Assembly (NCBI GenBank): GCA_016183775.1
Contig: JACPDY010000144.1
Coordinates: forward strand, 6,185 to 70,184
Length of the DNA stretch: 64,000 bases
Source of the DNA: Bacteroidota bacterium
GTDB lineage: Bacteria; Bacteroidota; Bacteroidia; JABDFU01
Direction of reading: 5' to 3'
In this document: piece by piece, positions 1-56,642 of the stretch
How the letters are laid out: every line of letters starts with the position of its first letter
How positions within the stretch are numbered: position 1 is the stretch's first letter
Notes under the pieces: model-generated
The model's database searches: none
What the model saw: the letters and a program-made list of their open reading frames with translations, nothing else
Told to the model about the DNA's origin: nothing
Made by a program: the position numbers and the translations under genes

Positions 1-3000
1 AGAGGATATTCAACAGTTCTTGAAAAGCCAACCGGTCAGATTTTTGGAGAATAAGGGGCAGATGTATGATATGACGGGTAAACCGGTTTCTTTTGTATTG
101 TTTAAAGCTTCAGTTCCCGGAATGGATATGTATATTACCGAAAAGGGTCTTACTTATTCATTTGTTAAGTATGAGGAAGATCCTAAGGGTGAAATGCACG
201 CTGAAAAATATGATTCAGCAGGTGAAGAGAACCGGAAAGCTGAATTTCGTCGTGTTGACGTTGAGTTAAAAGGTGGCTCTGTTAAACGTGAAAATATTAT
301 TAAAGAGTTCCCATCGGTCGCTAACTATCATTTTTTCTATAGCCATTGCCAGGATGGAGTTTACGGCGTTAAAGAATACGAAAAAATAACTGTTAAAGAT
401 GTTTACCCTGGTATTGATTGGGTGTTTTACAATTCGGACGAAAAGGGTTTTAAATATGACTTCATTGTTCATCCGGGCGCCAACCCCAGCCTTATCAGAC
501 TTGCATACAGCGGTGCCGACCTTAAAAATATTAATGGTAATATTCAGATATCAACCTCGCTTGGTTTTGTTACGGATAACCGTCCTGTTTCTTATATTGC
601 CGCCACTCGCCAAAGTGTGGAATCTTCATTTGATCTTTCTGAACAAAATGAAATATCTTTTTCCATTGATAATTATTATACCTCTCAAACACTTGTTATC
701 GATCCTCAGATAAATTGGTACACCCGTGGGCAGATAGGGGGGTTTGGAGGAGTACTGGATATGGAAGTGAACCAGGTAAATGGAGATTTTGCTGTGACAG
801 GCTATTACCAGGGAATTGGTTATCCGCTGTTAAATCCGGGTGGAGGCGCATATTTTCAGACCAGCGGTCAGATCATTATAATGTTGTTTAATTCAAAGGG
901 TGTTTTAAAATGGTCTACTTTATATGGGTCTCCATCAGGTAATGCAGATAATTATGGTTATTCTATATGCTTTGATGCGGCCGGAAATATTTTTTTATCG
1001 GGCAGAGGTACTACAGCTGCTAATGGATTTCCACTACAGAATCCGGGTGGCGGAGCTTTTTATCTGGCTAATAATTCCGGGTTTAATACGATTATCTTAA
1101 AGTTCGACCCGAATGGAGTACGTTTATGGGCCACGCATTTCGGTTGGTCCTGGAATACATCCCAGGGTGGTCATGAAGTTGAAGTTGATGCAGCGGGAAA
1201 CCTTTTTGTGGTTGGATCCTGTGGGGGATCAGGTTCTACCACCGCTTTGCCAGTATTAAATCCGGGTGGAGGAGCCTATTTTCAGGGTACAGGATCTGCA
1301 AATGACAATATGTTTATTGCAAAATTCACTAACTCGGGCGTTCTTTTGTGGTCGACCTATTTTGCCGGTAGTGGCGGAAGTTCGGGAGCTGATCTGGCAA
1401 TAGATAATAATGGAAATATTTTTTGCACAGGTTATGCCGGTACAGGATTTCCTGTTCTATCAGCCGGAGGCTATTTCGATAATACGGTAAATGGAATAAG
1501 CGATGTGTTCGTTGTGAAATTCAATAATAACGGAGTTCTGCAATGGTCAACTTATTTTGGAGGTAATGGTAACGCCGATCAGGCCTTCGGAATTGATTGC
1601 GACAATTTGAATAATATAATTATAACCGGGGTAACAAATTCAACGGCCGCTTTTCCGCTTCAAAATCCGGGCGGCGGAGCTTATTACCAGGCAACCAATG
1701 CGGGAGTGAGTGATATTTTTGTTTCCAAATTCACTCCGGCCACAAACCTGTTTTGGTCAACCTACTATGGTGGTGCGGGTGATGATGTTGGTATAATATC
1801 CGCTGTTTTTGTTGGGGATGTTGTTACAGACAATTGCAATAATATATATGTAGTTGGAGCGACCAAAGCGCCCGCCACATTCCCTACGTACAACCCGGGC
1901 TGTGGATCTTTCTACTATAATTATGGCAACCAGGCGATTCTACGTTTTTCCCCGGCGGGAGTGCGGAGCTGGGCAACGTTGTATGGGGAAAGTAATTCTC
2001 CTGCAAGTCAAAGAGCAACAATGACCTGCGCGTATGATAAAAATTCCCGTTGCTTTTATACAGGTGGCGAAATTTATGGTCCTTCCGGACCTAACCCACC
2101 ACCGGTTGATCCGGGCGGTGGAGCTTATTTTAATAGCTATTTTGGTCAAACCGGAGATGATTCATTTATTGCCAAGTTCTCTCCCGATACTCTTAAGTTA
2201 AGTAGTACATTCTCTCCGCCTTCGGTATGTTCATGTAACGGTAGCGCAACAGTGAATATTACCAGTTGCGGAACACCTCCTTATAATTATAAATGGAGTA
2301 ATGGAAGCCAGGCGCTGAATGTTTTAACAGCAAGTAACACCCTTACAGGTCTCTGCTCCGGAAATTATTGGGTTGAAGTAACAGATGCCGCTTGCAATAA
2401 GGATACTGTTTTTTATACTTTTCCCGGAGGACTTTCTTTGAGCAGTACATCCGGAAATGTTATATGCGCAGGATCCTGCAACGGGAGTTCGACCATAACA
2501 CCGGCAGGGGGATCTTCTCCTTACGGCTACTTATGGAGCAATGGTCAAACTGCGCAAACCGCTACCGGACTTTGTACGGGCACTTACTCCGTAGTTGTGA
2601 CGGATGCAGCGAACTGCACTTCGGTTTTGAATGTTACAATAAATAAATTAACCGTCAGTACATCGCAGACCAATGTTTTATGCAGTGGAAATACAACAGG
2701 TAATGCTGTTGTATCGGTTGCGGGTAATACTGGAACCGTAACATACAGCTGGCTGCCTACAGGTCAAACTACAAAGTCAGTAACAGGATTGACTGCCGGA
2801 ATTTATACTGTAAGGATAACTGATGCGAACGGTTGTTCGTTAAATGAAAAAGTATATATTGATGAACCGGAGCCTTTGATCATTACTCCGACCAGTCAGA
2901 ATATCAGCTGCACCACAAGTGGAAGTGCCTCAATAAGTACAAGCGGAGGAATTATACCATATACTTATAGCTGGAACACTGGTCAGACAAGTTCAACTAT

Positions 3001-4009
3001 TTCGTGTCCTACCGCGGGGGACTATACTGTAACTTTGACAGATGCCAATGGATGTACAAGCAGTCAGGTGTTTAACATAACCGGAACTAGTCCCGTTTCA
3101 GCATCATTTACCACTTCATCGACATGCACAGGCAGTTCAGTAACCTTTACCAATACGGGTTCAACGGGCACCTATAGCTGGCTTATTTCACCGTTAAATC
3201 CAAACGTAAGCGGTACTACTACTAACTTTACGTATACTTTTTTAACGGCAGGGAGCTACAGCGTTACACATACAGTTAGTGACGGAACATGTAATAACTC
3301 CATCACAGAAACTATCACAATGATAAATTGTGCCGGTCCTGCAGTAACTGCAACAGGAAATTCAGTATGTTCAGGTAATTGCGCTACAGTGAGCTCCAAT
3401 GGAACAGGAGGCTCGGCTCCATACACCTATTCGTGGAGTAATGGTTCCACGACTCAGAATATTAATCCATGTCCTGTTTCAACCGCCACATACACAGTTA
3501 CAATAAAAGATGCGGGTGGAAATACATCCACTTCAATGGCTGTGGTAACTGTTAATCCTGCTGTGAGCGTGACAACTACTGTAACAAATATAAGTTGTAA
3601 CGGGGGAACAAATGGCAGCGCCAGTGCAAATGTGAGTAGTGGTACACCTGGCTATACATATAGTTGGAGCAACGTGTCGGGTTCCGGGTCAGTGGTTTCA
3701 GGTTTAACTGCCGGAACGTATTCGGTTATGGTAACGGATAGCAAGGGCTGTACTGCCTCATCAACTGTAAATATAGCCGCACCTCCTGCGCTGGCCGGAC
3801 AATTTGCCAAAGGAACTTCCAATTGTGCAGGTTGCGGGTGTAAAGAATGGATAATGATCAATGCTGCCGGTGGAACTAATCCATATTCTTATTCCTGGCC
3901 GGATGGCTATGTGAACAGGTACAAAAATCAACTTTGCCCGGGTGCTTACACTGTAAATATTAAGGATAAAAACGGTTGCAGTGTGAATGTTAACTTTACA
4001 ACGCCATGA
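1..4009 (+). CDS. Large cell-surface protein with SBBP beta-propeller repeats followed by SprB repeats; 5' end lies outside the window; ends inside a repeat with no T9SS C-terminal domain
   Basis: The reading frame is open from nt 2 (..EDIQQFLKSQPVRFLENKGQ), so the start is upstream of the window. There are at least 8 repeats of the NPGGGAYFQ..WSTYFGG type (SBBP/beta-propeller repeat), then at least 10 units of the SprB-repeat type (C..G..tV...GG..PYtYsWsnG......GL.aGtYtV.vtD..GC). The ORF stops (TTP*) in the middle of a SprB unit, and no type A or type B CTD follows. Confidence 0.7.
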   Translation, partial: EDIQQFLKSQPVRFLENKGQMYDMTGKPVSFVLFKASVPGMDMYITEKGLTYSFVKYEEDPKGEMHAEKYDSAGEENRKAEFRRVDVELKGGSVKRENIIKEFPSVANYHFFYSHCQDGVYGVKEYEKITVKDVYPGIDWVFYNSDEKGFKYDFIVHPGANPSLIRLAYSGADLKNINGNIQISTSLGFVTDNRPVSYIAATRQSVESSFDLSEQNEISFSIDNYYTSQTLVIDPQINWYTRGQIGGFGGVLDMEVNQVNGDFAVTGYYQGIGYPLLNPGGGAYFQTSGQIIIMLFNSKGVLKWSTLYGSPSGNADNYGYSICFDAAGNIFLSGRGTTAANGFPLQNPGGGAFYLANNSGFNTIILKFDPNGVRLWATHFGWSWNTSQGGHEVEVDAAGNLFVVGSCGGSGSTTALPVLNPGGGAYFQGTGSANDNMFIAKFTNSGVLLWSTYFAGSGGSSGADLAIDNNGNIFCTGYAGTGFPVLSAGGYFDNTVNGISDVFVVKFNNNGVLQWSTYFGGNGNADQAFGIDCDNLNNIIITGVTNSTAAFPLQNPGGGAYYQATNAGVSDIFVSKFTPATNLFWSTYYGGAGDDVGIISAVFVGDVVTDNCNNIYVVGATKAPATFPTYNPGCGSFYYNYGNQAILRFSPAGVRSWATLYGESNSPASQRATMTCAYDKNSRCFYTGGEIYGPSGPNPPPVDPGGGAYFNSYFGQTGDDSFIAKFSPDTLKLSSTFSPPSVCSCNGSATVNITSCGTPPYNYKWSNGSQALNVLTASNTLTGLCSGNYWVEVTDAACNKDTVFYTFPGGLSLSSTSGNVICAGSCNGSSTITPAGGSSPYGYLWSNGQTAQTATGLCTGTYSVVVTDAANCTSVLNVTINKLTVSTSQTNVLCSGNTTGNAVVSVAGNTGTVTYSWLPTGQTTKSVTGLTAGIYTVRITDANGCSLNEKVYIDEPEPLIITPTSQNISCTTSGSASISTSGGIIPYTYSWNTGQTSSTISCPTAGDYTVTLTDANGCTSSQVFNITGTSPVSASFTTSSTCTGSSVTFTNTGSTGTYSWLISPLNPNVSGTTTNFTYTFLTAGSYSVTHTVSDGTCNNSITETITMINCAGPAVTATGNSVCSGNCATVSSNGTGGSAPYTYSWSNGSTTQNINPCPVSTATYTVTIKDAGGNTSTSMAVVTVNPAVSVTTTVTNISCNGGTNGSASANVSSGTPGYTYSWSNVSGSGSVVSGLTAGTYSVMVTDSKGCTASSTVNIAAPPALAGQFAKGTSNCAGCGCKEWIMINAAGGTNPYSYSWPDGYVNRYKNQLCPGAYTVNIKDKNGCSVNVNFTTP

Positions 4010-7400: not shown

Positions 7401-8372
7401 ATGGAAACAAAAGCACCAACGCCCGAAGTAAAACCTGAAGTCCAAAACATTAAGCAGGAGGAGAGGGAGGAAAAAAAATCGGGTAAAAGAATAATTCTTA
7501 TTTTGCTTTTATTGATTTCGTTTGCAGGAAATGGCATTTTGGCGTGGATGTATTGGCAGGAAAGAAACCGTGCAAATATTGTTATCACTGAGAAAGAAAC
7601 AATTATTGTTGAACGCGAGAATGTAAAGGCTGATCTTATTCAATTGCAGGCAGATTATGGGGAATTAAAAACCACCGATGAAAAAATTCAAACAGAATTG
7701 GAAGAGAAAAGGGCTGAAATAGCCCAATTAATTGTAGAAGCCGACAAGCATAAAAATGATGCCTACTTTATTTCGAAACTTAAAAAGGAAACAGAAACAC
7801 TGCGTAAGATCATGCAGGGGTATGTTCATACGATAGATTCTTTGGGTACAATGAATAAAACATTGCTGACCGAGAATGTTCATGTACGCACACAATTTTT
7901 AAGTGAAAAGGAAAAGGCTGCTCAATTATCAAGAGAAAAGGAAGACCTGCAGGGAGTTGTTAATACTGCGTCAATACTAAGGGCAAACGGAACAAAAGCA
8001 ATGGGGGTAAATATTCGCTCAGGCGGAAAAAAGGAATCAGAAACAAAACGGGCGCATAAAACCGATAAAATAAAAGTATCGCTGACTATTGGCGAGAATA
8101 CAATAGCAAAGAAGGGTACCCGCGATGTGTTTCTGCGTATTTTAACTCCTGATGGTAAAGAATTGGCACGTGCGTTGGATGACGCAAATAGCTTTTCTTT
8201 CAGAGGGGTAAGAGGCTTTTTCTGTGCACGTCAAACCATCAATTACGATAATAAAGAAGTTCCACTAGTGCTGTATGCCGAGAATAAAGCCGGCTATATT
8301 CCCGGAAAATATATTGTGGAGGTATATTGTGAACAAGCTTTGATCGGACAGACCACGCTTTTGTTAGAATAG
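7401..8372 (+). CDS. Membrane-anchored coiled-coil protein, hypothetical
   Basis: Lys/Glu-rich N-terminus, one TM helix (IILILLLLISFAGNGILAWMYW), an approximately 150-aa predicted coiled coil, then a C-terminal globular region. No known motif was recognised. Confidence 0.55.
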   Translation: METKAPTPEVKPEVQNIKQEEREEKKSGKRIILILLLLISFAGNGILAWMYWQERNRANIVITEKETIIVERENVKADLIQLQADYGELKTTDEKIQTELEEKRAEIAQLIVEADKHKNDAYFISKLKKETETLRKIMQGYVHTIDSLGTMNKTLLTENVHVRTQFLSEKEKAAQLSREKEDLQGVVNTASILRANGTKAMGVNIRSGGKKESETKRAHKTDKIKVSLTIGENTIAKKGTRDVFLRILTPDGKELARALDDANSFSFRGVRGFFCARQTINYDNKEVPLVLYAENKAGYIPGKYIVEVYCEQALIGQTTLLLE

Positions 8373-8437
8373 TTCAAGGTTCAAAGTTCCTGCAAGGTCG
8401 AAAATTGAACCTTGAACTTTGAACCCGGAACCAAGTA

Positions 8438-11400
8438 TTAAAAATATGCCCTTACCTGTGCCCCACCTGTATGTATGACTTTGGTATTTTCAGATTGGCG
8501 TCCATCGTAATTAATGCTGATCGTTAAATTGTTCGCGAGGTTCTGTTGGTAGGATAATCCCCATGTAATATTTTGTCCTTGTTTTAAACCTTCCATCATC
8601 TCATATGCAATAGGTGAGTTGGGTGACTCGCTGAACGCGATCTGAATGTAATTGGCTTTTGCGTTGAAACTTCCTTTTTGCAAAACGTTATAGCGCATTT
8701 CTGTTCCGTAGTTCTGTTGCGATAGTTTTTGTGCGCCAAGGTCAGGCGTATTTTGTTTATCCACATATTTAAAGACGAGACTGATCCTGAACGAAGTGTT
8801 GGGCTGGTAGCTTATTTTAGGTTCGGCTTCATAATAGTTGATATTGTAATTTCGTGTACTGAAGTATTGTGAGTTATTGTATTTGCTTCCGTTTCTAAGC
8901 CCCGCATTAAAGCTGAATGTACGGGTAATGTTCCAGCGTAATTTTACCTCCCGCGAAACTGCAATACGTGTTTCAAGCCCATTGGTCAGAAGTGATCTGC
9001 CCCGGACTTCCTGGTAACTGAATTCCATACCAAATACAGAACCCAGCTGATTAAAAAAGATTGAGTTGCGCAGCGAAGAGTTCAGCGACTTTAAAGAGCT
9101 GTCGGCGTTGGATCGCCGGAATGGATTATACGCATTTTCAAGATCCTCGTCGGTTGTTTTTTTGTCAACACGATAAGCGGTTTGGTTAGCAAATAATGAA
9201 AAGAATCCTTTCACCCCCTTCTTTCCCGACCAGATAGCTGCCGGTCTGATGTTAAGCGCTTCACTGAATTGGTTGGTATATGCGGTAATTGTTTGATCGG
9301 TGGGTGTATATATTTTTATATAATGCGCCTGGTCACGGAACACGGCCACCTCAAATTCATTCAATTCCTTTATACCATTCCCATTATAATCAGTCCATGC
9401 GTAAACACCTTGTCCGGCAGCTACTTCAAGATAAGAAAATTCTTTTTTCACTTCCTGTCCTGATCCGATCTCGTAAAATGTATTCGTGTTGATGAATCCG
9501 CGCAGCGCGCTGAAGTTGTGCTCAATGCGTCCCAACAATGTTTGATCGGGTTTTATTTTTGATATTAATGTATCCATTATCTCAAGTACGCGGTAAGATG
9601 TTGTTATGTTCACCTGGTTGTTGGGATTGTTAAAAAAGCCCACACTGACAGCGGTTTCCTGAGCAAATGTACTTTTTCTTAAAAGATTGCTACGGGCGCC
9701 ATAGTCGCTGCGTTGTTTATAGCTAAGGTTGTATTTAATTTTCGAGGTGTCTGAATTAACGGCGAAGGCTGTCCATTCAAAGAATTCAAAGCTGTTGTAT
9801 TGCAGGGTATCAGTTGTTTTTTGGCGTACATGGTTGCGTTCGTGCAGTTCTTTTAAGCCCAGTGTAATGAAGCCAAGTCTTTGCGAAACCTTTCCATTAT
9901 GTCGCAGAAAAGTTGAATTGGTAAGACTGTTTGAACTCATCAGGCTTCCATCGAAATTCATGTTAAAACCTTTATTGGTAATGGTTGTCGTTACTCCCTG
10001 CTTAAAGGCATCATACACAGAGCCTTCAAGGAATGAGTTGAAACGATACCCAATGTGAAGCAGTTCCGGTTTAACAAGTGAAAGGCCGGCTCCAATAATA
10101 TGCTGGTCAGAATTCTGGGTGGTGCCTGTACGGTTCCAGTCGCGTTCAAACTCTACCGCCCTGAATCGTTCAATGGGGTTAAAATATTGCTGAACATATT
10201 CATAATTTATGTTTGACACTATTTGTAAATTTTTTCTGCCTTGTTCTGATGAATCATTTTTGTTTCGGAATAATTTAATATTATCAAGCCCCATTTTAAT
10301 ACCGTAACCAATGTCATTCGATTTATCTGATTTCGAAAATGTATTAATATCATTATTTGAGACAGCGGTTTCAAGAGTAAAAGAAGTATTGTTGCCTGTT
10401 TTGTATTCACCACCCAGGGTAACCATTTGCCGCTGCTTGGGTGCGATCAGTTGAATTACCGGTTCGTGATCCCCCTGAGGCTCTCCTGCAATGGGTGGTA
10501 CCCATTGATACACTTTTCCGTTTGCTCCTGAGCTTATTTGACGATAGTTACCCTTTCCCACACGTGAGAATTTAAGTCTGTAATGGGCTTTTGCAGGATC
10601 GGTGGAGTAGAGGTAAATGTCTTTGTAGAGAATTGAACTTATTACAGTGTCCTTTTTTTCATACATTACTTCTGTTGTAGAGAATGCAATGCTGTCTATG
10701 CCCGGAGAATAGGCCAGGTTGGGGTTATCGCCGGCATTTGCCAGAATTTTTTTCTGATCTTCTGTAAGTTGCTGTTGAACGGGCTTGTTTTTGCTGTCCT
10801 GTTCTGAATACACATTGAAGTGTATCCTGAGGTTTCCTTGTTTGTATTCATTGCCAACATGAAACAATGAGCGCGCGAAATTCCTGTCAGAGTACTGAAA
10901 TTCTACCACAATGCGTTTATCTTTTGTGATGAGCCGTTTGGCGGTGAATATAATTTGCGAGGTGTTGTAATCAATTATGTAATCATTCTGCTGGCCGCGT
11001 TGCAGAAGTTGCCCATCGATATATACTTTCTCCGAACCCGACAGAACAATGATGAATTGCTCTCCTTCAGCTCCTCTCAGAAAATAGGGGCCCTGGTTCT
11101 TTTCAATTCCAGGTATAACATTGCGCGCGAACTTTCCCCGCGAAACGGCTGCGCTTCCGGTAATGGTCATTATTCCTGTTTTGGAAGTATCTTTTTGTGC
11201 GGGTCTAGTTTCAAATCGTGTTGTGAAATTCGCACCTTGGGCTTTTTTGAAATAGCGCATGAAATAGCCGGCCTGGCTGGCTATCTGGTAGTCGCCGGCA
11301 ATTAGTTTTGTCTTTTTATCATTTAGTTGGATGAACACTTTGTCGAATTCCTGTAACTGTTGTGTATTTCCTTCAGGTTGAATGGGTATGTTGTTATCAG

Positions 11401-11989
11401 TCGCAGCGAGCAATACCTCAACGTTGTCGGTCAACTTTCCTGCCACTTGTAGATTCAGATTTGAGTTCACAACAATATCCTGGTTATTGCCAAAATTTAT
11501 TCCGCGCGATATGCTGCCATTCTTGGTAAGCCCCTCGGTTTTAAAAAGATCACCAACAGGTTTGTCGATCACATATTGGAACGGATTTACGGCGCCGGAC
11601 CGATCAGGTTGAATGCGTTTAATGTCCTTATGCTGAATTATTTGGCTAAAATAAAAAGGGAAAACACGATACGAAAAATAGAGTGTATCAATATTGAAAG
11701 CTTGCTCTTTTAATTTTTTACGGTTGAAATAGATTTTGCTTTTGGGAAAGTCGGTCTGGTAAAATGAAGTGTCAATTGCCAATTGTTGTTTATTAGTAAT
11801 GATGACCGTTCCGGGGATGAGGCTTAAGGTGTCCAATTGTATTGTGTCGGACAGCAGGGGAATTATTTTTTTTCGTTTATTATTTAGATTCTGGGCGAAA
11901 GATGAATTTAATAAAGCAAGTCCAAACAATAGAATAAAGGCTATTGACAGCTCACATTTTTTAACTTTATATTTTTTCTTTTTTACCAC
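8438..11989 (-). CDS. Large (1183 aa) predicted outer-membrane beta-barrel protein, hypothetical
   Basis: Has a signal peptide (AFILLFGLALLNSSFAQ), is rich in alternating beta-strand-like segments, and has a C-terminal ..RAYF aromatic terminus typical of OM barrels. No TonB box or plug motif was seen. Confidence 0.55.
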   Translation of the reverse strand: MVKKKKYKVKKCELSIAFILLFGLALLNSSFAQNLNNKRKKIIPLLSDTIQLDTLSLIPGTVIITNKQQLAIDTSFYQTDFPKSKIYFNRKKLKEQAFNIDTLYFSYRVFPFYFSQIIQHKDIKRIQPDRSGAVNPFQYVIDKPVGDLFKTEGLTKNGSISRGINFGNNQDIVVNSNLNLQVAGKLTDNVEVLLAATDNNIPIQPEGNTQQLQEFDKVFIQLNDKKTKLIAGDYQIASQAGYFMRYFKKAQGANFTTRFETRPAQKDTSKTGIMTITGSAAVSRGKFARNVIPGIEKNQGPYFLRGAEGEQFIIVLSGSEKVYIDGQLLQRGQQNDYIIDYNTSQIIFTAKRLITKDKRIVVEFQYSDRNFARSLFHVGNEYKQGNLRIHFNVYSEQDSKNKPVQQQLTEDQKKILANAGDNPNLAYSPGIDSIAFSTTEVMYEKKDTVISSILYKDIYLYSTDPAKAHYRLKFSRVGKGNYRQISSGANGKVYQWVPPIAGEPQGDHEPVIQLIAPKQRQMVTLGGEYKTGNNTSFTLETAVSNNDINTFSKSDKSNDIGYGIKMGLDNIKLFRNKNDSSEQGRKNLQIVSNINYEYVQQYFNPIERFRAVEFERDWNRTGTTQNSDQHIIGAGLSLVKPELLHIGYRFNSFLEGSVYDAFKQGVTTTITNKGFNMNFDGSLMSSNSLTNSTFLRHNGKVSQRLGFITLGLKELHERNHVRQKTTDTLQYNSFEFFEWTAFAVNSDTSKIKYNLSYKQRSDYGARSNLLRKSTFAQETAVSVGFFNNPNNQVNITTSYRVLEIMDTLISKIKPDQTLLGRIEHNFSALRGFINTNTFYEIGSGQEVKKEFSYLEVAAGQGVYAWTDYNGNGIKELNEFEVAVFRDQAHYIKIYTPTDQTITAYTNQFSEALNIRPAAIWSGKKGVKGFFSLFANQTAYRVDKKTTDEDLENAYNPFRRSNADSSLKSLNSSLRNSIFFNQLGSVFGMEFSYQEVRGRSLLTNGLETRIAVSREVKLRWNITRTFSFNAGLRNGSKYNNSQYFSTRNYNINYYEAEPKISYQPNTSFRISLVFKYVDKQNTPDLGAQKLSQQNYGTEMRYNVLQKGSFNAKANYIQIAFSESPNSPIAYEMMEGLKQGQNITWGLSYQQNLANNLTISINYDGRQSENTKVIHTGGAQVRAYF

Positions 11990-12325
11990 TACTACGCTTA
12001 TTACTTGGGCGACATCCGTAAAGGTGTGTTAAGTAAAATTTTAGTTCGTTCTTTCGCAAATCTACAAATTAAAACAGGTAACAATTCTTATGAGAAACGG
12101 GCCTGGATACGCTGAAATACAAACGATAAGATCAAAAATTTATTGGTGTAAAACAGGTACAAAGAATTAAAAATTGCGCTATTTATTGCATGAAATTAAC
12201 TATATTTATCTAATTCATTTTCAACCTGTTGTGTATTCAATTATGCGAAATATGCAACTTTTTTGATCAATCAAGTCTTTAGTGTAGCAGGTAAAGCTAT
12301 GCTATTGGACGCAGCAGTAATAAAT

Positions 12326-12859
12326 ATGGACCTGAACGTTCAATTAATTGATGACTGTAAGAATGGAAGCAGGAGTGCGTACGAGGAATTGTACAGGCTA
12401 TATGTAAAAGCGATGTATAATGTTAGTATACGCATAACCAATGATCGGGAAGAGTCGGAAGATGTTTTGCAGGAATCATTTTTAAGCGCTTTTCAGAATA
12501 TAGACCGTTTAAAAGAAAAGGCGTTATTTGGAAGCTGGCTGAAAAGAATTGTGATAAATAAGTCGATTGATTCGGTCAAGAAAAAGAAAGAGAAGTTTAT
12601 TTCTTTTGATGATATCCGGGAAAAGGATCTTGCGGAAGAAGAAATAACAGAGAATGAAAAGGAAATTGAATATGACATTGAATCGGTCAACAAAGCAGTG
12701 CAGCTTTTGCCGGATGGTTTCAGGACTGTACTGACATTATATTTATTTGAAGATTATAGTCATAAGGAAATAGCGGATGTGTTGGGGATAAGTGAAAGCA
12801 CATCCAAGACACAATATTTAAGAGCCAAGCAAAGATTAATACAATTGTTGAAAAAGTAA
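12326..12859 (+). CDS. RNA polymerase sigma-70 factor, ECF subfamily
   Basis: Region 2 (ELYRLYVKAMYNVSIRIT, ESFLSAFQNIDRL) and region 4 HTH (LPDGFRTVLTLYLFEDYSHKEIADVLGISESTSKTQYLRAKQRL) are present. The probable start is M at 12326 rather than the ORF start at 12263. Confidence 0.85.
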   Translation: MDLNVQLIDDCKNGSRSAYEELYRLYVKAMYNVSIRITNDREESEDVLQESFLSAFQNIDRLKEKALFGSWLKRIVINKSIDSVKKKKEKFISFDDIREKDLAEEEITENEKEIEYDIESVNKAVQLLPDGFRTVLTLYLFEDYSHKEIADVLGISESTSKTQYLRAKQRLIQLLKK

Positions 12860-12867
12860 TAGTTAAC

Positions 12868-14370
12868 ATGACCGATAAGCTAAAAAAATTCGTGCAGGAA
12901 CACCGCGATCAAATGGATGTTCATGAGCCTTCTCCGGAAATGTGGAACGCTTTGAGCAAACAGTTGATTAAAAAATCTTTTCTGAACGGGCTTCTTCAGA
13001 ACAGTGTAGGGAAATTACTTCTTGTAGGAGCAGCGATAGTTACTGCTGTTGCGGTTTATACATTTGTTTCCAATAAGGATGATCAGAAAAATAACCAGGA
13101 AGCAATAACTAGTGCTACTGATCCGGAATCAAATTTATCCGAAGGTACACAGTCGACTGTAATTGGTGATAATAATAACTCAGCTGATGGTGCCGGCATA
13201 ACGAATGAAACAATAAATAGCACACAGTTTTCAGGGGCAAAACCCGAATCAACTGTTACGGATATCAAACGACATACTGTCATCGTATATTATAACCTGG
13301 ATCGTATGTCCGGTGGCGGTGTGAGTAATAATTTTTACAATGGTGCTGGAACAAAGGTCGACCCCAGGGCTTTATCCTCCGGTAATAATGGGCCGTCCAA
13401 ATATTTTGTTTCTACCGCTGTTAAAAATCTCACATGCAGCGGCAATAAGTCAGGACAAATTGATATTACTCCGATCGGGAACAAAGAGTCGTATTCATTT
13501 CTCTGGCTTCCGGTAAATAAAACCACAGAAGACATCAGTGGCTTAAATGCAGGTACATATACTTTATCCATTACTGATTCTCATGGTTCTGTCGGAACAT
13601 TCACCTATACAGTTACTGAGCCAACTCCCATTTCATTATCGGTTTCTTCTGAACAGGCACATTGTGGTTTGAATAATGGTTTGGCTGTGGTTACGGTAAA
13701 TACAGGCGGGCCGGGTCCCTATGTCTATTCATGGAATAATGGCGGGACTGATGCTTCTATCAATAACCTGGCAAGCGGATCATATAATGTAACTGTAGTT
13801 GATAACCTCGGATGCAAAGGGGTTACATCCGTGAATATAGGAAGTGCTGCAGGTGTCAGATCTGTGTTTACCGCATCGCTTCCTGGTGAAAATGCTCCGC
13901 TAAAGGTTAATTTTTCCAATACCAGTTTCGGCGCCACAATGTGGACATGGAAATTCGGAGATGGTGAAACTGATTCGAACAGGAATACCAGTCATACGTA
14001 TGCCAGGGAGGGGACATACAATGCCTGTTTAATAGTTCAAAATGCAGCAGGATGTAAAGATTCATCGTGCAGTAATATTATGGTAAACCCCGCACATTCT
14101 GTTATGGTGCCAAATGTTTTTACACCAAACGGGGATGGCAAGAATGATAATTTTGTAATAGCTACAAAAGAAGTTGAAAAAATTGAAGTGTATGTATATG
14201 ATCAGTTAGGGGCGAAGGTATGGGAATATGCGGGACCCGTGGCGGTTTGGGATGGAACTACAAATACAGGACAGCCCGCTATTGATGGAAATTATATATA
14301 TGTATACAAGGCCTACGGAACTGATGCTAAAATAGTGGAGAGTAAGGGAATTGTAAGGCTTGCACGATAG
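12868..14370 (+). CDS. Anti-sigma-like single-pass membrane protein fused to SprB repeats, a PKD domain and a T9SS type-B (gliding-motility-associated) C-terminal domain
   Basis: Starts 8 nt after the sigma-factor stop. The 45-aa N-terminal segment (KFVQEHRDQMDVHEPSPEMWNALSKQL) is of the kind found in Bacteroidetes proteins encoded after ECF sigma factors. It is followed by a TM helix (LLLVGAAIVTAVAVYTF), a low-complexity linker, two SprB-type units (CSGNKSGQIDITP...YSFLW; CGLNNGLAVVTVNTGGPGPYVYSWNNG), a PKD-like unit (KVNFSNTS..WTWKFGDGETDS..TSHTY..GTYNACLIVQN) and a type-B CTD (VPNVFTPNGDGKNDNFVI...VYDQLGAKVWEY...WDGT...GNYIYVYKA). Confidence 0.7.
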   Translation: MTDKLKKFVQEHRDQMDVHEPSPEMWNALSKQLIKKSFLNGLLQNSVGKLLLVGAAIVTAVAVYTFVSNKDDQKNNQEAITSATDPESNLSEGTQSTVIGDNNNSADGAGITNETINSTQFSGAKPESTVTDIKRHTVIVYYNLDRMSGGGVSNNFYNGAGTKVDPRALSSGNNGPSKYFVSTAVKNLTCSGNKSGQIDITPIGNKESYSFLWLPVNKTTEDISGLNAGTYTLSITDSHGSVGTFTYTVTEPTPISLSVSSEQAHCGLNNGLAVVTVNTGGPGPYVYSWNNGGTDASINNLASGSYNVTVVDNLGCKGVTSVNIGSAAGVRSVFTASLPGENAPLKVNFSNTSFGATMWTWKFGDGETDSNRNTSHTYAREGTYNACLIVQNAAGCKDSSCSNIMVNPAHSVMVPNVFTPNGDGKNDNFVIATKEVEKIEVYVYDQLGAKVWEYAGPVAVWDGTTNTGQPAIDGNYIYVYKAYGTDAKIVESKGIVRLAR

Positions 14371-16281: not shown

Positions 16282-16743
16282 TCACGCGTAAACGCTCTCC
16301 CTTTTAAACTTTTGCAAAAGGCGGGGGTCACTAAACGCTTTGGCGTCACGTACTTTTTTACTGAATTTAAAACCTGCATTAAGTTTTTTATTTATTAACG
16401 AAGTCAAAGAAATACCAAGGTAAGTGTGTAATAAAATAATTGTTTCAAGACTCAAAGGCCTTTTACGATGAAGAACCTCAGAGGCTCTTGTTTCACCACC
16501 AAAAAAGCCAGCAATTTCCTTTTGCTTTAGATCTCTTTGTTCTATCGCGAATTTAATTGCTTCAATCGGGTCGGGTAAATCAAATTTGGCATGATGAAAT
16601 TGGTAATGCTCAATAAAAGCCTCTAATAGCTCCATTTCTTTAACTTCTTCTTTAGTGCGCTTTCCTGTTTTAAAATCAAGATCGTAAAGCCTTTTGCAGG
16701 CCTTATTGTAATCAACATCATTTTTTATAACACCTATTTTCAT
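16282..16743 (-). CDS. higA: Type II antitoxin HigA (HTH-XRE family)
   Basis: C-terminal HTH (LKQKEIAGFFGGETRASEVLHRKRPLSLETIILLHTYLGISLTSLI). It lies 14 nt downstream of higB on the same strand. Confidence 0.7.
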   Translation of the reverse strand: MKIGVIKNDVDYNKACKRLYDLDFKTGKRTKEEVKEMELLEAFIEHYQFHHAKFDLPDPIEAIKFAIEQRDLKQKEIAGFFGGETRASEVLHRKRPLSLETIILLHTYLGISLTSLINKKLNAGFKFSKKVRDAKAFSDPRLLQKFKRESVYA

Positions 16744-16756
16744 TTTGTAATAGTAT

Positions 16757-17071
16757 TTATTCTTTAAAAGGTATGTTTTCTATGTTTTCCAATTTATCAT
16801 ATTCATTATGTGTGCCAAACCAAATTATATAAACCCTTTTAAACTGATACCTGATGCGAACAATTAATCTGAAATGATTTCCATTTATGTTAAAGATAAC
16901 AGTGTTGTTACCTACAAAATCAGCAGATGCGTATTTGACTCTTATTTCATTGGGAGAAGAGTAATCGCAAGATGAAAAATCATTTATCCAGCTTTCCATT
17001 GCATTTTTGGCGTTTTTGTATTTGGGTATGTGAAGCCAATGGTATAGTGTTTTAGTTTTAATGATATTCAT
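16757..17071 (-). CDS. higB: Type II toxin HigB (RelE/ParE superfamily mRNA interferase)
   Basis: 104-aa protein with the FVGNNTVIFNINGNHFRLIVRIRYQFKRVYIIWFGTHNEYDKL signature of the HigB family. Confidence 0.75.
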   Translation of the reverse strand: MNIIKTKTLYHWLHIPKYKNAKNAMESWINDFSSCDYSSPNEIRVKYASADFVGNNTVIFNINGNHFRLIVRIRYQFKRVYIIWFGTHNEYDKLENIENIPFKE

Positions 17072-28893: not shown

Positions 28894-31800
28894 TTATTGC
28901 GCCAGCGTAAATCTTAAGCTTATGCCCGCGTTTGTATTTGAAGTAGGGAAGGAGGAGGAGATGACCGGTCGGTTCATGATACGGTCAAAGAAAGCGCGGA
29001 CAGTCAATTTATCATTAAGTATGTAATCTGCGGAAGTTTTTATTGTAATTATATTTTGACCTGAAGTGGCCTGCGTGATATCTGTTGCGGCCTGGCGCAT
29101 TACGGTAATGTTGTTTTTAAAGGATATATCCGCTTTTAAATTAAGGTCACTTTTAAAGGCACGTTTTCCTAATTTGATCTTAAGGTCTTTGATCCTGTAA
29201 CCCGCGCCTATTACTATATCACGGGAGTTAAGTTCCTGCAGTTGTATGTTCGACATGGCCAGTGAAAGGTTGCGTTCTTTTCTTATTTCAAAACTGGTGA
29301 GCAAGCTGTTGTTCCAGGTCATATCAATTTTAAGCAGCGGCGAAAATTGTTCGGATATCGAAACCGAACCGATCGTTAAACGCGGAACAAAATTACTTGT
29401 GGCATCACGGACAGTGGTGAGGCCATCGCCATTATCCACAAAGTTTAAATTTTGAGTGAAGGAGGTTACGTTGTAGGTTGAGCGGTAAGAATGGCTCAGG
29501 GTAATTGAGCGGAATAATGTTTTTATAATTTCCATTTTGGATAATCCATCATAAGTTATCCTCCAGTTGGGCATTGGAAGTAAAGGGAAGGTGGTAAGGT
29601 CGTTTTTGCGTGGTGCTCTGCCTGCGTAGGCGGCTACAAATGCGGGTATGGTTACATCCTGTGATATAGCGCCGTAGCCGTTCATAAAGCCGGATGTATC
29701 CTGTTTAAGTTGTGCAAGCGTGTACTTCTGTGCCTGGAAGTTGGAGATCGTTGCCCTGTAATTGAGAAAGTTCTCCCAGTTCTGGGAAAAATGTGTTTTG
29801 TTTCGTTTTTCGAAAGCGGTTCGTATACTCAGGAATGATATACTGAAGCTTCCTGAAAAAGTAGGTGTTTGACTTTGAAACGATTTTGAAAGGCCGTCCC
29901 ACCTGAAAAATTCGCTGCGGGTTTCGCTGTAGTTGCGATTGCCATTCACTTCGATTTTAAAATCAGGTAATGGTTCAATATTTACACGTGCTGTAATATT
30001 TTGTGTGCGGTTATTTGTGTATGGAGTATTGATTGAAGCGGTTTTTTCCAGCCAGTCATTATCAATGGCTTTTTGCCGGATGTCGGCCTGGCTGCCAAAT
30101 ATGAAGCCGGGAGTAGGGCCTTCAAATCGGCTATCCATTCCCATAATATTTGTCTTTTGCGAATAACCGGGAAGTGTAGTTCCGGCATTGTCGGTATAGC
30201 TCAGTGTAATGTTTTTTACGCTGGTAACAAGCCGGCCAATATAATCCAGTATCTCATATTGATTTTCTTTCTTTTTTGGTTTTAATGTATCGGCCTTTAA
30301 AATTTTGGCTTTTAAAGAATCAATAGCTGCCTTATTTGCGCCTGAGGTGTCTTTCGATAAAGATTTTAGTTTTAATTTTAGTTTTGCCATATCCTTCGTA
30401 GCGGCAGCGGCTTTTTCGGCTTCTGCTTTTTCTTTGGCTTTTTGTTTTTCATCGGGCTTGATCCCGCCAAGCGGTTTTTTCGATAGCTTTTTAAAGTAAG
30501 GTATTTTATTATAAAGAGTACTCATGTTAAATTGTCCGTTCCATTGCCAGGAGCCTGAATTCTGAATGATGTGACCGAGAGAGTCGGCGGCAAAGGGTGC
30601 TCGGGTCCAATCGTATGTGCCGGAATAGCGCACGCTTGCATTCACAAAATCAAGCATGGGTAATTTGTTAATAGGTATGGTATAGTTCACATTTAATGAA
30701 TGCCGGTATTTTGTAGTAAGCCCGAGACCCAATAGGTTATCAATAACAGTATCGCGTTTTTCCTGGGTATCTATCCGTCCTACGGGTTCCATTATCCGTC
30801 CCTGGTTATTGGCAGTAAAATCAACCTTAAGGGCTTTCGTCAGATCCCATTTCAGGTCGTACGAACGGTTCATGTTAAATGTTTTATTATAAAGCGGAAT
30901 AATAATTACATCGGATGATCCGGTGTTATTGCGGATCTTGCTCTCATTGTAAAAGCGATCCACATCAGTTGTAAATCCCAGCCTGTTGGGGAGAAGTGAA
31001 AAATTAAGGTCCTTGATAAGTGAAAAATATTTCGGATTCAGTTTTATTTTGTCAAAAGGTTTAATGCTTTTGGCTGTGGGAGAGAAGGACCAGGTAAGAC
31101 CTGCCTTATAGGTTCGCGTTGTATTGTATTCTATATTTATATCGCGATGAAAAATTTCACTGAAAGAGTAGGAGAGTGCCACATTTTCAATATCGTAAAT
31201 GTGAGATGTCTTTTTATTTTTCCCTTTGTCTTTTTTTACATTGGTAAAGTTCAGACTCTTTCGTCGTGTGTAATCGACGGTTACCGTACTGAGTGAATCT
31301 CTTTGTGTTTGAGGAATGGCCTGATCGCTTAAAACTTCTTTCAGGTTTATATCGGGGTCAAGCGGATTAAACCGCGGAACAATAAACGACTCGGAATATC
31401 CGAAATACATAGGAATTTTAATGTTCAATGTTGAAGGAGTGAATTTCCCAAGTTCAATATTGGACGAAAGGTCATATCCGTAATTGGTTGATTGCTGACG
31501 TTCGTTCACTTTCTTTTCAATCCCGCCCCAGCCGGGTGTGCTATAATTTCCCGCAATAGAAATTGAACCCAGATCAGCCAGGTCGGTTTTGATCCGTGCA
31601 ATGGATGCCCATCCGCCTTGTTCGTCAAAATCACTCAGGCGCAATTCGTTTACCCAAACTTCACCGCATTTCGCCAGTCCGTCATCAGTGGTACTCCCGG
31701 GTTGCTGCTTTGGATTTCGTATGCCTATCATGATTGTTTTAACACCGGCCAGGTTTGGATTTCCCATAATGTAAATATTGTTGCTTCCATCACTTACCAT

Positions 31801-34800
31801 GTAGCGGATATTTAGCTTGGCTGTGGCTGTGCCATTGGTTAAGGCGATGTTACGCTGCTGTTTAGCCGATTGCAGTTTGGCAAATTCCAGGTCGAGTTCG
31901 TTTGCCAGCGGCCATACGGCATACTGGTCGGCCTGGTTACCTCCATTGTAGTTTTTTGGCGCGGTCACTTTCAGTGGAATTTCATACTCGTAATAGTTGC
32001 TGCTAAAATCACTCCCCAGCCGGATGAACACACGCAGGTCGCCGTCATTAAGGGCATCGCCATTTGGGCCGGCTTCAGCATGGACGAACATTTTTAACTT
32101 TTTATACATGCGTATGTCAAGACTGGTTGTGCGGAACGCGGCCCTTGCATTGCCGTCTTCCAGACCGCAAACGCGCATTGACAATGCCTGCTCGTTCAAC
32201 CGGGCGAGATTGGAAGACTGAATATTTACCTGGCGATCAATGCCCGGAGGTAAAACGTAGTTTACCGGCGCACGTGTTCCGTTCTCTTCTATGTTGATAG
32301 CAGCCGTTTGAAACGAGGCGTTGCGGCCGTCTGTACCCAGGTATTCTCCGTCAGCCAGGAGAGAGTTGTTATATGTTCTCCATTCTCCGCGAATAAATTC
32401 CATACGTGCAAAGCGGCACACAATAGGTTTGTCAACACCTTTAAAGAACATGCGTATAAAACGGATGGAACGAAAATCTTCAATGCTTCCTACTTTTGTT
32501 TCAAATTCCCTGATTGGTATTTTAATCTGGTACCACTTGATGGGTTTTGTTGTTCCGTTCTTGATATTTTGTCCGGAGGTTGAAAGAATGTCGGTGATAT
32601 AATTTTGTCCAACTGCATTGAAGTCGGAGGGCCGTAAACTTAAGCGGTATTGAAAATAACCTTCACTTTCACTTAGGGTATTGTCGCGGTTAATATCTTC
32701 AGAAGTAGGTGTTGATGTTGCTGAAGTGGTGTAGCTTTCGGTAAGTCCCTCATGATTTGCCTGACCGGATGCCGGGGAGTTGCCATCGGGACCATTGTAT
32801 TGACGGTAGCGTTCAAGCACTGTGAGCTTAGTGTTGTCATAATCTGAACCGCGATAAAAATGGTAATCATCTCCGGAAGGATCTTTTACAGCATTCAGAT
32901 AGGCGGCTGAAGTGGCGCCATGCAGGGCGGAGACTTTTTGAATATATGAACTATTGAAAAACGAATTTTCATCACCATTGGTCAATCCATCCAGCCCGAC
33001 ATCCTGGTAAGGGCGCGCTGCTTCATTCACATCAAATGCGTTTACAATTGACTGGATGGCGGGAACTCTGCCCCATTTCGTTTCGTCGTAAGGAATATTT
33101 GTTGAATTGCTTCCGTCTATAGGTAAACCATTTTCAAATGCTTTGCGTGAATCTTTCAAAACATCTTCCGAAATGTTGCCGAGGTTTACGTAAAGGTCGC
33201 CTGTAGTGTTAGGGTTGATATTGTCGGCGTTAAAAGGATCCATCATCCAGAATTGTATGTACTCAATGTTGGTCGCTTCAAAATCGTTTGTTACCACCTG
33301 GCGCATAATACCGCCCCAGCGGCTTTTAGGATTATTTAATTTTCCATTCACGTCAATGCCGCTTGAAATGCCTGATAGTCCGGTTACGTCGTAATTGTAA
33401 GGCCCGCGATCCTGTGGATAGTATGCAAGATCAAACACCGGTGTATTGGTAGGCGTTCCGCTTGGCAATTGTTTGTTGGGGAATATTTCAGTTTCAAGCA
33501 CCTCACGTGTGAAGTTGTCTGACATTTCGTTGGGGCCCAGATTGCCGGGGGTTAAGCCGGGTGTATTACGCAATAAAAGAGGATCGATGATATACCAATT
33601 AAGCCTGGCACGGTTAAAACCAGCAGGAAGGCTGTCGTTCAATGATGCTTCGGGAAATAGTCCGGGCTGCCCCTGTGGTATACTGGCCAGCGACCAGGCC
33701 TGCGGCGATTTTATATCAATACGTGAAATACTTCCTTCAAAATCATCAATGTATGAATTACCATCCTTGCCAATAGCTTTATTGTGTCCGGGAAATAGTT
33801 TTGCTACTTCACCCGATGCTACAAGGTTAGAGGGCTGCTTTGTACTAATGAACGGTAATTTATCAACAAGCTTTGTAATAAAAGGCACTTCTGTTTTATA
33901 GTTTCCGTCCAGTCCAACAACTGTATTTGAAATAGGTTCATCACCTATGTTCACTTTTTGTGTCAAAGGGCGTTCAGTTAAACGCATGATCGTACTTCCA
34001 AGTATAAAGTCTTTGTTTACCCGGTAATCAAAATGAGCACCTATCATTGTTTTTGACTGTAATGCGAATAGCGAATTACTTTCGAGCGAGATCTTAATTG
34101 GTGTGCCCGAGTTGAGTATGCCTTCGTTGATTATTTTTACACGGCCGAGTGTATAGTCAACTGTATAGTCAATGTTTTCAGTAAGTTTAATCCCTCCAGC
34201 CGTAACCGTTACTGAACCTTGCGGAACGTTTACGGTATTGAGTGCTATCTCTGAACTTGAAGATGATTTATAAGAGCCTTTGAGTTTGAATCGGTTTTTT
34301 TCCGGTATCTGTATGGCCGCTGTTTTGGTGGAATCGTACAACTGTTTGTATGCATATTTTTCGGCAAAAGGCCGGGTGGTTAATGTGTCCGAAGTGGGAG
34401 GGCTGCCCAGTATTTTTTTATATAAATAACTTCCGAATGGTTCAGCTACGGGAAAAATGATCCGGCCATTTGCGGCGCTTATGGTAACACCGTCAATAAA
34501 GTCGAATACACCGTCAGCCGTTGCGTCACCGTTTAAATTGAGGCGGTCGAGCGGAAGTACCTGCACAAGGGGGATGCCCTTATAAGGCCCGTCAGGGAGA
34601 AAATTAATGTCGACGCCGGTTGAGAGGTTGTTGTACCAAACCTCTAATCTGAAATCCTGTGGATTTATCTGGTATCCGCCAATGGAATAAATGTTTTTCA
34701 TCATCAGGTCCCAAATAGGCAGTCGCGGATTAACTGTTGTACCCTTAAGCAATTTTATATAAAGTGGTTTGGGACTTGTTATCCCATCAGTTGAAAACTC

Positions 34801-55495: not shown

Positions 55496-55628
55496 TTAAC
55501 ATTAAATTATAAGCAATAATAAGCATTTTTTGTACATAATGACAAAGCGCTGTTTACTTATTTTTTTATACCAACTTGTCATTAAGTCTCATAAAATAAA
55601 ATGGTGGCTTGATGGCGTAGTTGGTAGC

Positions 55629-56642
55629 ATGCCCCGCAGAAATGGCTTTTTTGCTGTCGTCTGGGCATTTATTCCTTTACTTGTGGCTTGTTCGGGAAAC
55701 AGGTTGGATGTGGATGTTTCAGAGATTAAGGTCGAAGAGCTGAAGATCGACAGATTAGAAGAGGATCTCTTTAACGCTAAAATTTCCGGTGCCGGGTTGA
55801 AGTTACAGTTAGAAAAGAAATATGGTGATTTTTATTTGAGTTTTCAGAATGTGGTCAGCGGTGGTGCTGTGCCTGATTCTGCGGCTATAAACTCATTAGG
55901 CATGTTCGTGCGTGATTCAGCAATGAAAGAGGCATATAACGAATGCAAAAAAAAATATCCCGACCTCAGCTGGCTTAAAAACGACCTGACCGAAGTATAC
56001 AGACATTTTAATTATCATTTCCCGAAATACAGATTGCCGCGTGTTGTAACGTATATGTCAGGGTTCAATTTTTCGATATTAAGGGTAGATTCAACTATCG
56101 GTATCGCTTTGGAAATGTATTTGGGTAATAATAATAAATTCTATCAAATGCTGCAGTTTCCAAAGTATAAGACAATGACCATGGAAAAGGAATACATGGT
56201 ATCGGATTTTGCTCGCGGCTGGATGACGACTGAGTTTCCGAAAAATGGAAGTGGAAAAGATCTTCTGAATGAGATTATTTATAATGGAAAGCTCTTGTAT
56301 CTCGTTGACGCATTGTTGCCGGAGCTAAATGATACAGTCAAAATGGGCTACACCCAAAAACAGCTCGAGTGGTGCGAACAAAATGAATACAATATGTGGG
56401 CTTATTTTGTGCAGAAAAAAGTCTTATATATCTCTAATCCGGGTGAAATAATTAAATATACCGGTGAAGGCCCTTTTACTTCAGCATTCAATAAAGAATC
56501 TCCGGCACGTGTTGGCACCTGGATAGGTTGGCATATCGTTCGGGCATATATGAATAATCATCCTGAAGTGTCACTCGAAGAATTGATGAAAGATAATGAC
56601 GCACAAAAGCTTCTTACACGATCTAAATATAAACCCAGGTAA
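55629..56642 (+). CDS. gldB: About 38-kDa lipoprotein, possibly gliding-motility lipoprotein GldB
   Basis: Lipobox (LLVACSG). The 338-aa size matches what I recall as the reported size of the GldB lipoprotein, and the C-terminal WIGWHIVRAYM region is conserved-looking. The assignment is from memory of the family, not a search. The ORF start at 55530 is probably too far upstream, so M at 55629 is used. Confidence 0.45.
   Translation: MPRRNGFFAVVWAFIPLLVACSGNRLDVDVSEIKVEELKIDRLEEDLFNAKISGAGLKLQLEKKYGDFYLSFQNVVSGGAVPDSAAINSLGMFVRDSAMKEAYNECKKKYPDLSWLKNDLTEVYRHFNYHFPKYRLPRVVTYMSGFNFSILRVDSTIGIALEMYLGNNNKFYQMLQFPKYKTMTMEKEYMVSDFARGWMTTEFPKNGSGKDLLNEIIYNGKLLYLVDALLPELNDTVKMGYTQKQLEWCEQNEYNMWAYFVQKKVLYISNPGEIIKYTGEGPFTSAFNKESPARVGTWIGWHIVRAYMNNHPEVSLEELMKDNDAQKLLTRSKYKPR

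Follow-up and report, generated by a model that had tools for sequence, protein, structure and literature searches.

We analysed a stretch of 64,000 nucleotides (hereafter the window) from a Bacteroidota metagenome-assembled genome (MAG; assembly GCA_016183775.1, contig JACPDY010000144.1), in which the gene of an extracytoplasmic function (ECF) sigma factor is directly followed by that of a 500-aa membrane protein with an outer region derived from a type IX secretion system (T9SS) cargo. The two genes very probably encode a sigma/anti-sigma pair with a cargo-derived sensor, and they probably form a two-gene module autoregulated from a TGCAAC-N16-GTC promoter. With T9SS coupling included, which is plausible, the whole statement stands at somewhat less than an even chance. 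An ECF sigma/anti-sigma pair whose sensor is derived from a secretion signal is unprecedented. A full-text literature search found no published anti-sigma factor with a T9SS C-terminal domain (CTD), which bears out a remark to this effect in a preliminary description of this DNA.

The sigma factor and its partner gene

The upstream gene (12326..12859, plus strand) encodes a protein of 177 aa, in which Pfam recognises Sigma70_r2 (PF04542, E 4.9e-13) and Sigma70_r4_2 (PF08281, E 2.4e-13); its score against the NCBIfam model TIGR02937 (sigma70-ECF) is 89.4 bits, with a cutoff of 42.9. Having regions 2 and 4 alone and a length close to the class norm of about 180 aa, the protein is an ECF (group IV) sigma-70 factor. 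All specific equivalog models of NCBIfam score under their cutoffs against it. Orthologues of the gene are found in loci L001-L004 and L007.

Its stop codon (TAA, 12857-12859) is separated by 8 nt from the start codon (ATG 12868) of the second gene, which lies on the same strand (12868..14370). The spacing given in the preliminary description, together with the coordinates and the order of the genes, is thus correct. The second gene encodes the 500-aa protein, an anti-sigma-like single-pass membrane protein whose exact GenBank entry is MBI2271854.1, from a Bacteroidota MAG. Four full-length orthologues are known, at 88, 65, 45 and 44% identity, and all of them are encoded directly behind an orthologous sigma gene. 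The pair is retained despite changed flanks: in L001, the 1183-aa protein that the window has upstream gives way to PriA.

A conserved N-terminal module paired with sigma factors

Residues 1-35 of the 500-aa protein (12868..12972, plus strand; the N-module) are presumably cytoplasmic and would bind the sigma factor. AlphaFold2 (AF2), run on an alignment of 58 sequences, predicts a helix-loop-helix, with helices at residues 2-16 and 23-34 (block-mean pLDDT 81-87 for residues 1-30), after which a long helix (38-73) takes in the transmembrane (TM) segment. Among the five orthologues, counting the window protein, 51% of the N-module columns are invariant, which is the highest proportion of any region of the protein. 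The remaining values are 20% for the TM helix, 5% for the linker (residues 69-185), 31% for the SprB repeats, 37% for the PKD domain and 36% for the CTD.

A HMMER profile of residues 1-75, searched against 1.84 billion representative proteins, retrieved 155 family representatives at the threshold of E ≤ 1e-3; a word-index protein search with the 75-residue N-terminal alignment gave no match. The N-module heads at least 150 single-pass Bacteroidota proteins. The family motif, M-x-D-K-L-x-x-F-[IV]-x-x-H-R-x-x-F-D-x-x-E-P-x-x-x-x-W-x-x-I, starts at residue 1 in most members, and the TM helix follows the module at about residues 40-55. The region beyond the helix is mostly coiled coil, in proteins of about 185 aa. 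Other outer domains are varied, namely DUF4097 (7 members), DUF2807 (2), OmpA (1) and HEAT repeats (1), and often none can be recognised. In P0121-P0130 and some other members, the N-module is present two to four times in tandem ahead of the TM helix, amounting to more than 100 residues.

Residues 1-75, taken from this protein and from 145 family members, have no match in Pfam or NCBIfam, and the N-module has none in the PDB. The zinc motif HxxxCxxC is excluded, there being no cysteine in residues 1-48. Named members of the family, such as WP_089900790.1 of Chitinophaga arvensicola, are labelled "hypothetical protein".

A homologue of the window sigma factor is encoded immediately upstream of the N-module gene in all 20 loci with upstream sequence. 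Eighteen of these homologues were identified by phmmer (E 1e-44 to 1e-105) and the other two by their Pfam sigma domains. Across the family, the two genes mostly overlap by 4-11 nt. In a Saprospiraceae MAG (L014, 3026-4480), the sigma factor and the N-module appear as a single open reading frame (ORF) of 484 aa; its junction is an A12 homopolymer that may reflect an assembly frameshift, and the case was left unused as evidence of fusion.

On sequence evidence, the protein has the classical make-up of an anti-sigma factor, in which a single TM helix joins a conserved head in the cytoplasm to an outer sensor that varies; this reading is well supported, and we infer that the N-module holds the cognate sigma factor. 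The downstream gene had been described as an anti-sigma-like partner. This assignment is now supported by the adjacency in 20 of 20 loci, by a module family with unrelated outer domains, by a charge bias that places the N-terminus inside the cell (see below) and by the top conservation of the module. Whatever the mechanism, the N-module family provides a widespread and hitherto unannotated group of ECF sigma partners in Bacteroidota.

Membrane anchor, topology and tether

The 500-aa protein contains a single strongly hydrophobic segment, residues 49-68 (13012..13071, plus strand; Kyte-Doolittle 2.26 over 19 residues), which is preceded by 48 hydrophilic residues and is best read as a TM signal-anchor. 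In the family, the 15 residues before the TM helix contain on average 3.85 lysines and arginines and those after it 1.60, and the side before is the richer one in 107 of 121 members. By the positive-inside rule, this favours a cytoplasmic N-terminus family-wide.

Judging by sequence reasoning only, we saw no conserved signal-peptidase site among the five orthologues. The sole AXA-like site, A60-V61-A62, is part of the helix, and the distant orthologues P0004 and P0005 have I-V-V and I-I-I in its place. A lipobox is absent, since no cysteine occurs before residue 190. In members with tandem N-modules, more than 100 residues stand before the helix, which therefore does not belong to a signal peptide. 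The preliminary description had named a cleaved signal peptide as the observation that would speak against its reading; the lack of a conserved cleavage site and the charge bias point away from this. All T9SS effectors carry a cleavable Sec signal peptide at the N-terminus (PMC12618676); such a peptide thus appears to be missing from the 500-aa protein.

Between the helix and the outer domains lies a low-complexity tether, residues 69-185 (13072..13422, plus strand), of which about two thirds are S, T, N, Q, G, P, D, E or K. Its identity falls to 14-21% in the distant orthologues. From the invariant Y-T at the end of the helix to the first cysteine of the SprB repeats, the distance is 121-124 residues in all five orthologues, and this conservation of length without conservation of sequence suggests that the tether acts as a spacer. 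An AF2 model of the full-length protein, built from five sequences and of low confidence (pLDDT 41.6), has no secondary structure over residues 68-179. We estimate that about 122 residues, when fully extended, would measure some 40 nm, enough to reach the outer membrane. Within this hypervariable linker, four of the five orthologues share a semi-conserved island, VYYNxDRLSxG...FY.A (13282-13347, residues ~139-160), which could be a processing or interaction site.

An outer region copied from a cargo tail

Two SprB repeats are found within residues 186-330 (13423..13857, plus strand; Pfam PF13573, two stretches, E 1e-12). They are followed by a PKD domain within residues 331-408 (13858..14091, plus strand; match at about 339-401), recognised by PF18911 (PKD_4, E 1.7e-15) and PF00801 (E 1.1e-09) and matched by PKD domains in the PDB. 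Residues 409-500 (14092..14367, plus strand) form a type-B T9SS CTD (CHU_C / TIGR04131) with one altered motif. The CHU_C match (PF13585, residues 413-496, E 7.9e-17) scores 61.6 bits against a cutoff of 27 and is placed at the extreme C-terminus; TIGR04131, the type B sorting domain, scores 38.7 bits against a cutoff of 35. These Pfam and NCBIfam scores confirm the SprB repeats, the PKD domain and the type-B CTD that had been ascribed to the second gene.

In L001, the next gene after the sigma/anti-sigma pair (7826-11314) encodes a canonical SprB/PKD/CHU_C cargo of 1162 aa, with an ordinary cleavable signal peptide of 26 residues and an intact RWG motif (DRWG). Residues 187-500 of the 500-aa protein align colinearly with the last 320 residues of this cargo at 41-42% identity, through both SprB repeats, the PKD domain and the CTD. 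It is the closest paralogue of the anti-sigma outer region that we saw, and because the alignment with this canonical cargo is colinear, the outer part is a copy of a complete cargo tail. For comparison, the signal region of type-B CTDs comprises about 150-235 residues (PMC12618676).

The fusion of such a tail to the N-module is rare. Among the best 120 SprB/PKD/CHU_C relatives, the N-module is present in the five orthologues only and is absent from the remaining 115; of the N-module representatives listed (150), only three, all representing this clade, have CHU_C. Targeted scans of GTDB species genomes and JGI metagenomes gave 9 genome and 4 metagenome loci, with no further CTD fusion. As the N-module and CHU_C co-occur only in this clade in our searches, the fusion is a rare single-clade invention. 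The search for the fusion architecture that the preliminary description had suggested thus leads to five sequence clusters in one small uncultured clade.

A secretion signal canonical except for R-W

From 41 non-orthologous type-B CTDs we derived a consensus of 28 columns conserved in at least 60% of sequences. The five anti-sigma CTDs match 21-24 of these columns (24 in the window protein), and canonical CTDs match 24.9 on average, with a range of 18-28. Being within the canonical range, the anti-sigma CTD is not decaying; its share of invariant columns among the orthologues (36%) is level with that of the PKD domain. The motifs PNxFTPNGDGxND, WDG, GxYxY and KGxxxLxR are all present in the 500-aa protein.

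The altered motif is N-R-W-G, in which the type-B CTD alignment places Q-L at R-W (codons 446-447, 14203..14208, plus strand). Of the non-orthologous type-B CTDs, all 34 that were aligned keep both R and W, as do 8 of 8 further comparators taken from the matches of a CTD-only protein search, giving 42 out of 42. The five orthologues have Q, Q, E, P and Q at the position of R, and L, L, L, A and Q at that of W. Type-B CTDs have five conserved motifs, each of which is required for the secretion of an SprB-CTD reporter (PMC12618676); the paper does not spell the motifs out, and RWG is presumably one of them. When all the CTD motifs of a type-B cargo are looked for, the 500-aa protein therefore falls short at R-W.

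The term "bona fide T9SS substrate", used in the preliminary description, holds insofar as the CTD scores above its cutoffs and agrees with the consensus. It is too strong because the whole clade has lost R-W from a secretion signal that is constrained in other respects. Such a natural variant of the type-B CTD, complete but for R-W, offers a handle for separating the recognition part of the signal from the transport part.

Promoter and upstream region

A candidate ECF-type promoter, TGCAAC-N16-GTC (12253..12277, plus strand), lies about 50 nt before the sigma start codon. All five orthologous operons (the window, L007, L004, L003 and L001) have it upstream of the sigma gene with the spacing of 16 nt unchanged, and in L006 and L013, which are more distant members of the family, a related site is found before the sigma gene. 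The AAC / GTC arrangement resembles the classic ECF promoter pattern. The conserved element may thus act as promoter, and its position ahead of the sigma operon suggests autoregulation. Exact matches to GCAAC-N16-GTC number one in the 64-kb window, about 1.2 being expected by chance, and because the core occurs only once there, no regulon member can be identified in the window.

A TTG start of the sigma gene at 12263 was considered and rejected, as the stretch that it adds includes the conserved promoter and shows no conservation at the protein level. For the former reason, and because the alignment of orthologues supports it, ATG 12326 is taken to be the true start.

Each of the five orthologous loci also has a second conserved block (TCATTTTCAA...TTGT), which lies some 10-40 nt upstream of the promoter's -35 element (window ~12215-12245). 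Divergent from the sigma operon lies the gene of the 1183-aa protein (8438-11989, minus strand), which has a signal-peptide-like N-terminus, a C-terminus ending in ...RAYF and no match in Pfam or NCBIfam. The divergent arrangement is found in L003 and L004 as well, and not in L001.

T9SS genes in the window

The organism has genes for the T9SS and gliding: the window encodes SprA (28894-36297, minus strand, 2467 aa) and GldB (55530-56642, plus strand). Among the larger window ORFs that were scanned, which included every ORF flanking the pair, none had a Pfam match to PorP/SprF. The listings of L001-L004 show none either, and the canonical cargo of L001 likewise has no adjacent carrier gene. 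In Flavobacterium johnsoniae, 9 of 12 type-B cargos have an adjacent porP/sprF-like gene, and the other 3 are orphans that share a shuttle encoded elsewhere (PMC12618676). The absence of a neighbouring PorP/SprF gene, pointed out in the preliminary description as unusual for type-B cargo, was thus confirmed in the scanned ORFs; in view of these 3 orphans among 12 it is no anomaly.

Three further observations concern the rest of the window. A 1591-aa protein (39548-44323) has a weak type-A CTD match of 25.4 bits, just under the 27-bit cutoff. A 1329-aa ORF (20-4009, plus strand), whose start runs to the window edge, contains DUF7948, an SBBP repeat, PKD and six SprB repeats, with no recognisable T9SS CTD at its end. 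A gene for a HigB-family toxin (104 aa, PF09907, E 2.5e-27) and an adjacent partner gene of 153 aa (16282-17071, minus strand) are probably a toxin-antitoxin pair.

Discussion

We propose that the 500-aa protein inserts into the inner membrane in an N-in orientation, which would place the 35-residue helix-loop-helix head in the cytoplasm to sequester the sigma factor. The disordered tether, about 122 residues long and conserved in length, would let the outer part reach the outer membrane. There, the T9SS or a PorP/SprF-type carrier may recognise the cargo-mimic tail in the way that it recognises real type-B cargo; PorP/SprF-like outer-membrane carriers are bound by type-B CTD proteins (PMC9143113). 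We propose that the tail cannot be released, because the protein is tethered and R-W of RWG is gone. Capture, pulling or competition with real cargo would alter the stability of the anti-sigma factor, most likely via regulated proteolysis, and so free the sigma factor, whose activity would thereby report T9SS or adhesin traffic. A mechanical trigger is conceivable because a covalent bond couples carriers such as SprF to a track that moves; for SprF this is a disulfide link to GldK (PMC12635249).

The proposal could be carried further. The protein would then span the whole envelope, with its tail threaded through the T9SS translocon and loaded on a PorP/SprF-like carrier dragged by the gliding/T9SS track, while its head holds the sigma factor. 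A pull on the 122-residue tether, arising from carrier movement or surface adhesion, would free the sigma factor, and the altered RWG would be an adaptation for capture without release. If true, this would amount to a mechanical, FlgM-like checkpoint for a running T9SS/gliding machine or for surface grip; we consider it unlikely.

Several results weigh against a coupling of the pair to the T9SS, or against the anti-sigma assignment itself. The outer domains found elsewhere in the N-module family are unrelated, and the cargo tail could simply have been borrowed as a module for binding. With R-W lost in all five orthologues, the CTD may no longer be seen by the T9SS. The fusion is confined to five sequence clusters from uncultured Bacteroidia, no T9SS or PorP/SprF gene adjoins the pair, and a search for regulon members through the promoter core found no second site in the 64-kb window. 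Lastly, no homology of the N-module to known anti-sigma domains (e.g. zf-HC2/ZAS, RskA, FecR) was found.

These points bring forward the main rival explanation, a sigma/anti-sigma pair with no T9SS role, in which the SprB-PKD-CTD region is a borrowed Ig-like stack confined to the periplasm, where it would sense a ligand or the state of the envelope, the CTD being kept only for its fold. The RsgI anti-sigma factors of Clostridium would be a parallel case. We hold this to be possible, if somewhat doubtful. A family that uses many unrelated outer domains and an operon devoid of T9SS genes both fit it well. So does the loss of R-W in all orthologues, given that every conserved motif is needed for secretion of the SprB-CTD reporter (PMC12618676), and the NGDGxND loop could be conserved for structural reasons. 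Yet apart from R-W the CTD is as canonical as that of real cargo (21-24 of 28 columns), and it is conserved like the PKD domain and the SprB repeats across orthologues whose linker has been randomised. Moreover, an entire secretion-competent tail of 320 residues was copied rather than adhesin repeats alone, and a purely periplasmic sensor would have no need of a 122-residue tether of conserved length. Alternatively, the protein could be a pro-protein whose anchor replaces the signal peptide: a site-1 cut in the linker would free the sigma factor together with a soluble SprB-PKD-CTD fragment, which would then be exported by the T9SS as an adhesin. In favour of this are the architecture of the outer part, which is that of a full cargo tail, the linker island VYYNxDRLSxG as a candidate processing site, and the fact that membrane anti-sigma factors are usually controlled by regulated proteolysis. 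The loss of R-W argues against efficient export of the fragment (PMC12618676), and the pair has no linked protease gene, which makes this course of events rather improbable.

Two further explanations dispense with the anti-sigma role altogether. In one, the downstream protein is a co-transcribed target or accessory membrane protein of the sigma factor, and the N-module has another function. It could draw on the absence of both known anti-sigma homology and a zinc-binding motif, and on the tandem arrays of 2-4 modules in some members, which are unusual for anti-sigma factors. Against it stand the strict adjacency in 20 of 20 loci, with overlapping genes, and the combination of a conserved cytoplasmic head with a variable outer domain, which is an anti-sigma hallmark; we find it quite improbable. 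In the other, the protein is an ordinary secreted cargo, merely regulated by the neighbouring sigma factor, and its N-terminus is an extended cleaved signal peptide of the kind seen in autotransporters. Signal peptides with a conserved N-terminal extension are known from other systems, and A-V-A at residues 60-62 could be a signal-peptidase site in three orthologues. This site is in the middle of the helix, though, and is replaced by I-V-V and I-I-I in P0004 and P0005. The same module also heads proteins without a secretion signal, with up to four tandem copies before the TM helix; the canonical cargo of L001 has a normal signal peptide of 26 residues, and the module is in none of the 115 other listed SprB/PKD/CHU_C relatives. 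Because a dispensable n-region would not be the best-conserved part of the protein, and because of the tandem copies and the lack of a conserved AXA site, an ordinary cargo of this sort is very unlikely.

Comparison with known systems

FlgM, the anti-sigma factor of sigma-28, is exported as a secretion substrate, so that the activity of the secretion machine controls the sigma factor. The logic of the proposed coupling is the same, in that an anti-sigma factor is made to resemble the substrate of a secretion machine. FlgM is soluble and fully exported via the flagellar type III system, whereas the 500-aa protein would be anchored in the inner membrane, and there is no sequence relationship between the two. 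As the outer membrane is the sole site of T9SS action, pulling or proteolysis would be needed here to set the sigma factor free, unlike with FlgM.

RsgI, the anti-sigma factor of SigI in Clostridium thermocellum, bears carbohydrate-binding modules of the kind found in secreted enzymes. Like the 500-aa protein, it is a membrane anti-sigma factor with an outer part built from modules of secreted or surface proteins; it differs in belonging to another phylum, in having another N-terminal anti-sigma domain and in lacking a secretion-signal domain. Class II anti-sigma factors of the CnrY type consist of a short, non-zinc, helical cytoplasmic segment and a single TM helix, and are encoded beside an ECF sigma gene. 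Proteins with the N-module may be likened to them in layout, with no sequence similarity detected.

With canonical type-B cargo, namely SprB and the orphans of F. johnsoniae (PMC12618676, PMC9143113), the 500-aa protein shares its C-terminal architecture and CTD family, and like the orphans it has no adjacent PorP/SprF gene. It departs from them in its 48-residue cytoplasmic head and signal anchor, which take the place of a Sec signal peptide, in the replacement of R-W and in its pairing with a sigma factor.

The nearest known system is that of Porphyromonas gingivalis, in which PorA, a CTD protein, feeds into the ECF sigma factor SigP via PorY/PorX (PMC7712824, PMC4800418). There, as proposed here, a protein with a T9SS CTD lets the state of the cell surface or the T9SS influence how active an ECF sigma factor is. 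PorA itself is a small protein of the cell surface that has a signal peptide and works through a two-component route, and PorA was not found to interact with PorY directly; here, by contrast, the CTD protein itself would be the membrane-anchored partner of the sigma factor. Nor is the window sigma factor SigP-like by NCBIfam, the nearest P. gingivalis-type model (NF058625) being under its cutoff. How Bacteroidota match gene expression to the state of their T9SS and gliding machinery is largely unknown: PorA-PorXY-SigP is the only route described so far, and its link from the surface to the inner membrane is still lacking. The pair described here suggests, and does not prove, that gene expression is wired to the T9SS/gliding machine. 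If so, a T9SS recognition domain and a sigma-binding head joined in one polypeptide would supply such a link from the surface to the inner membrane.

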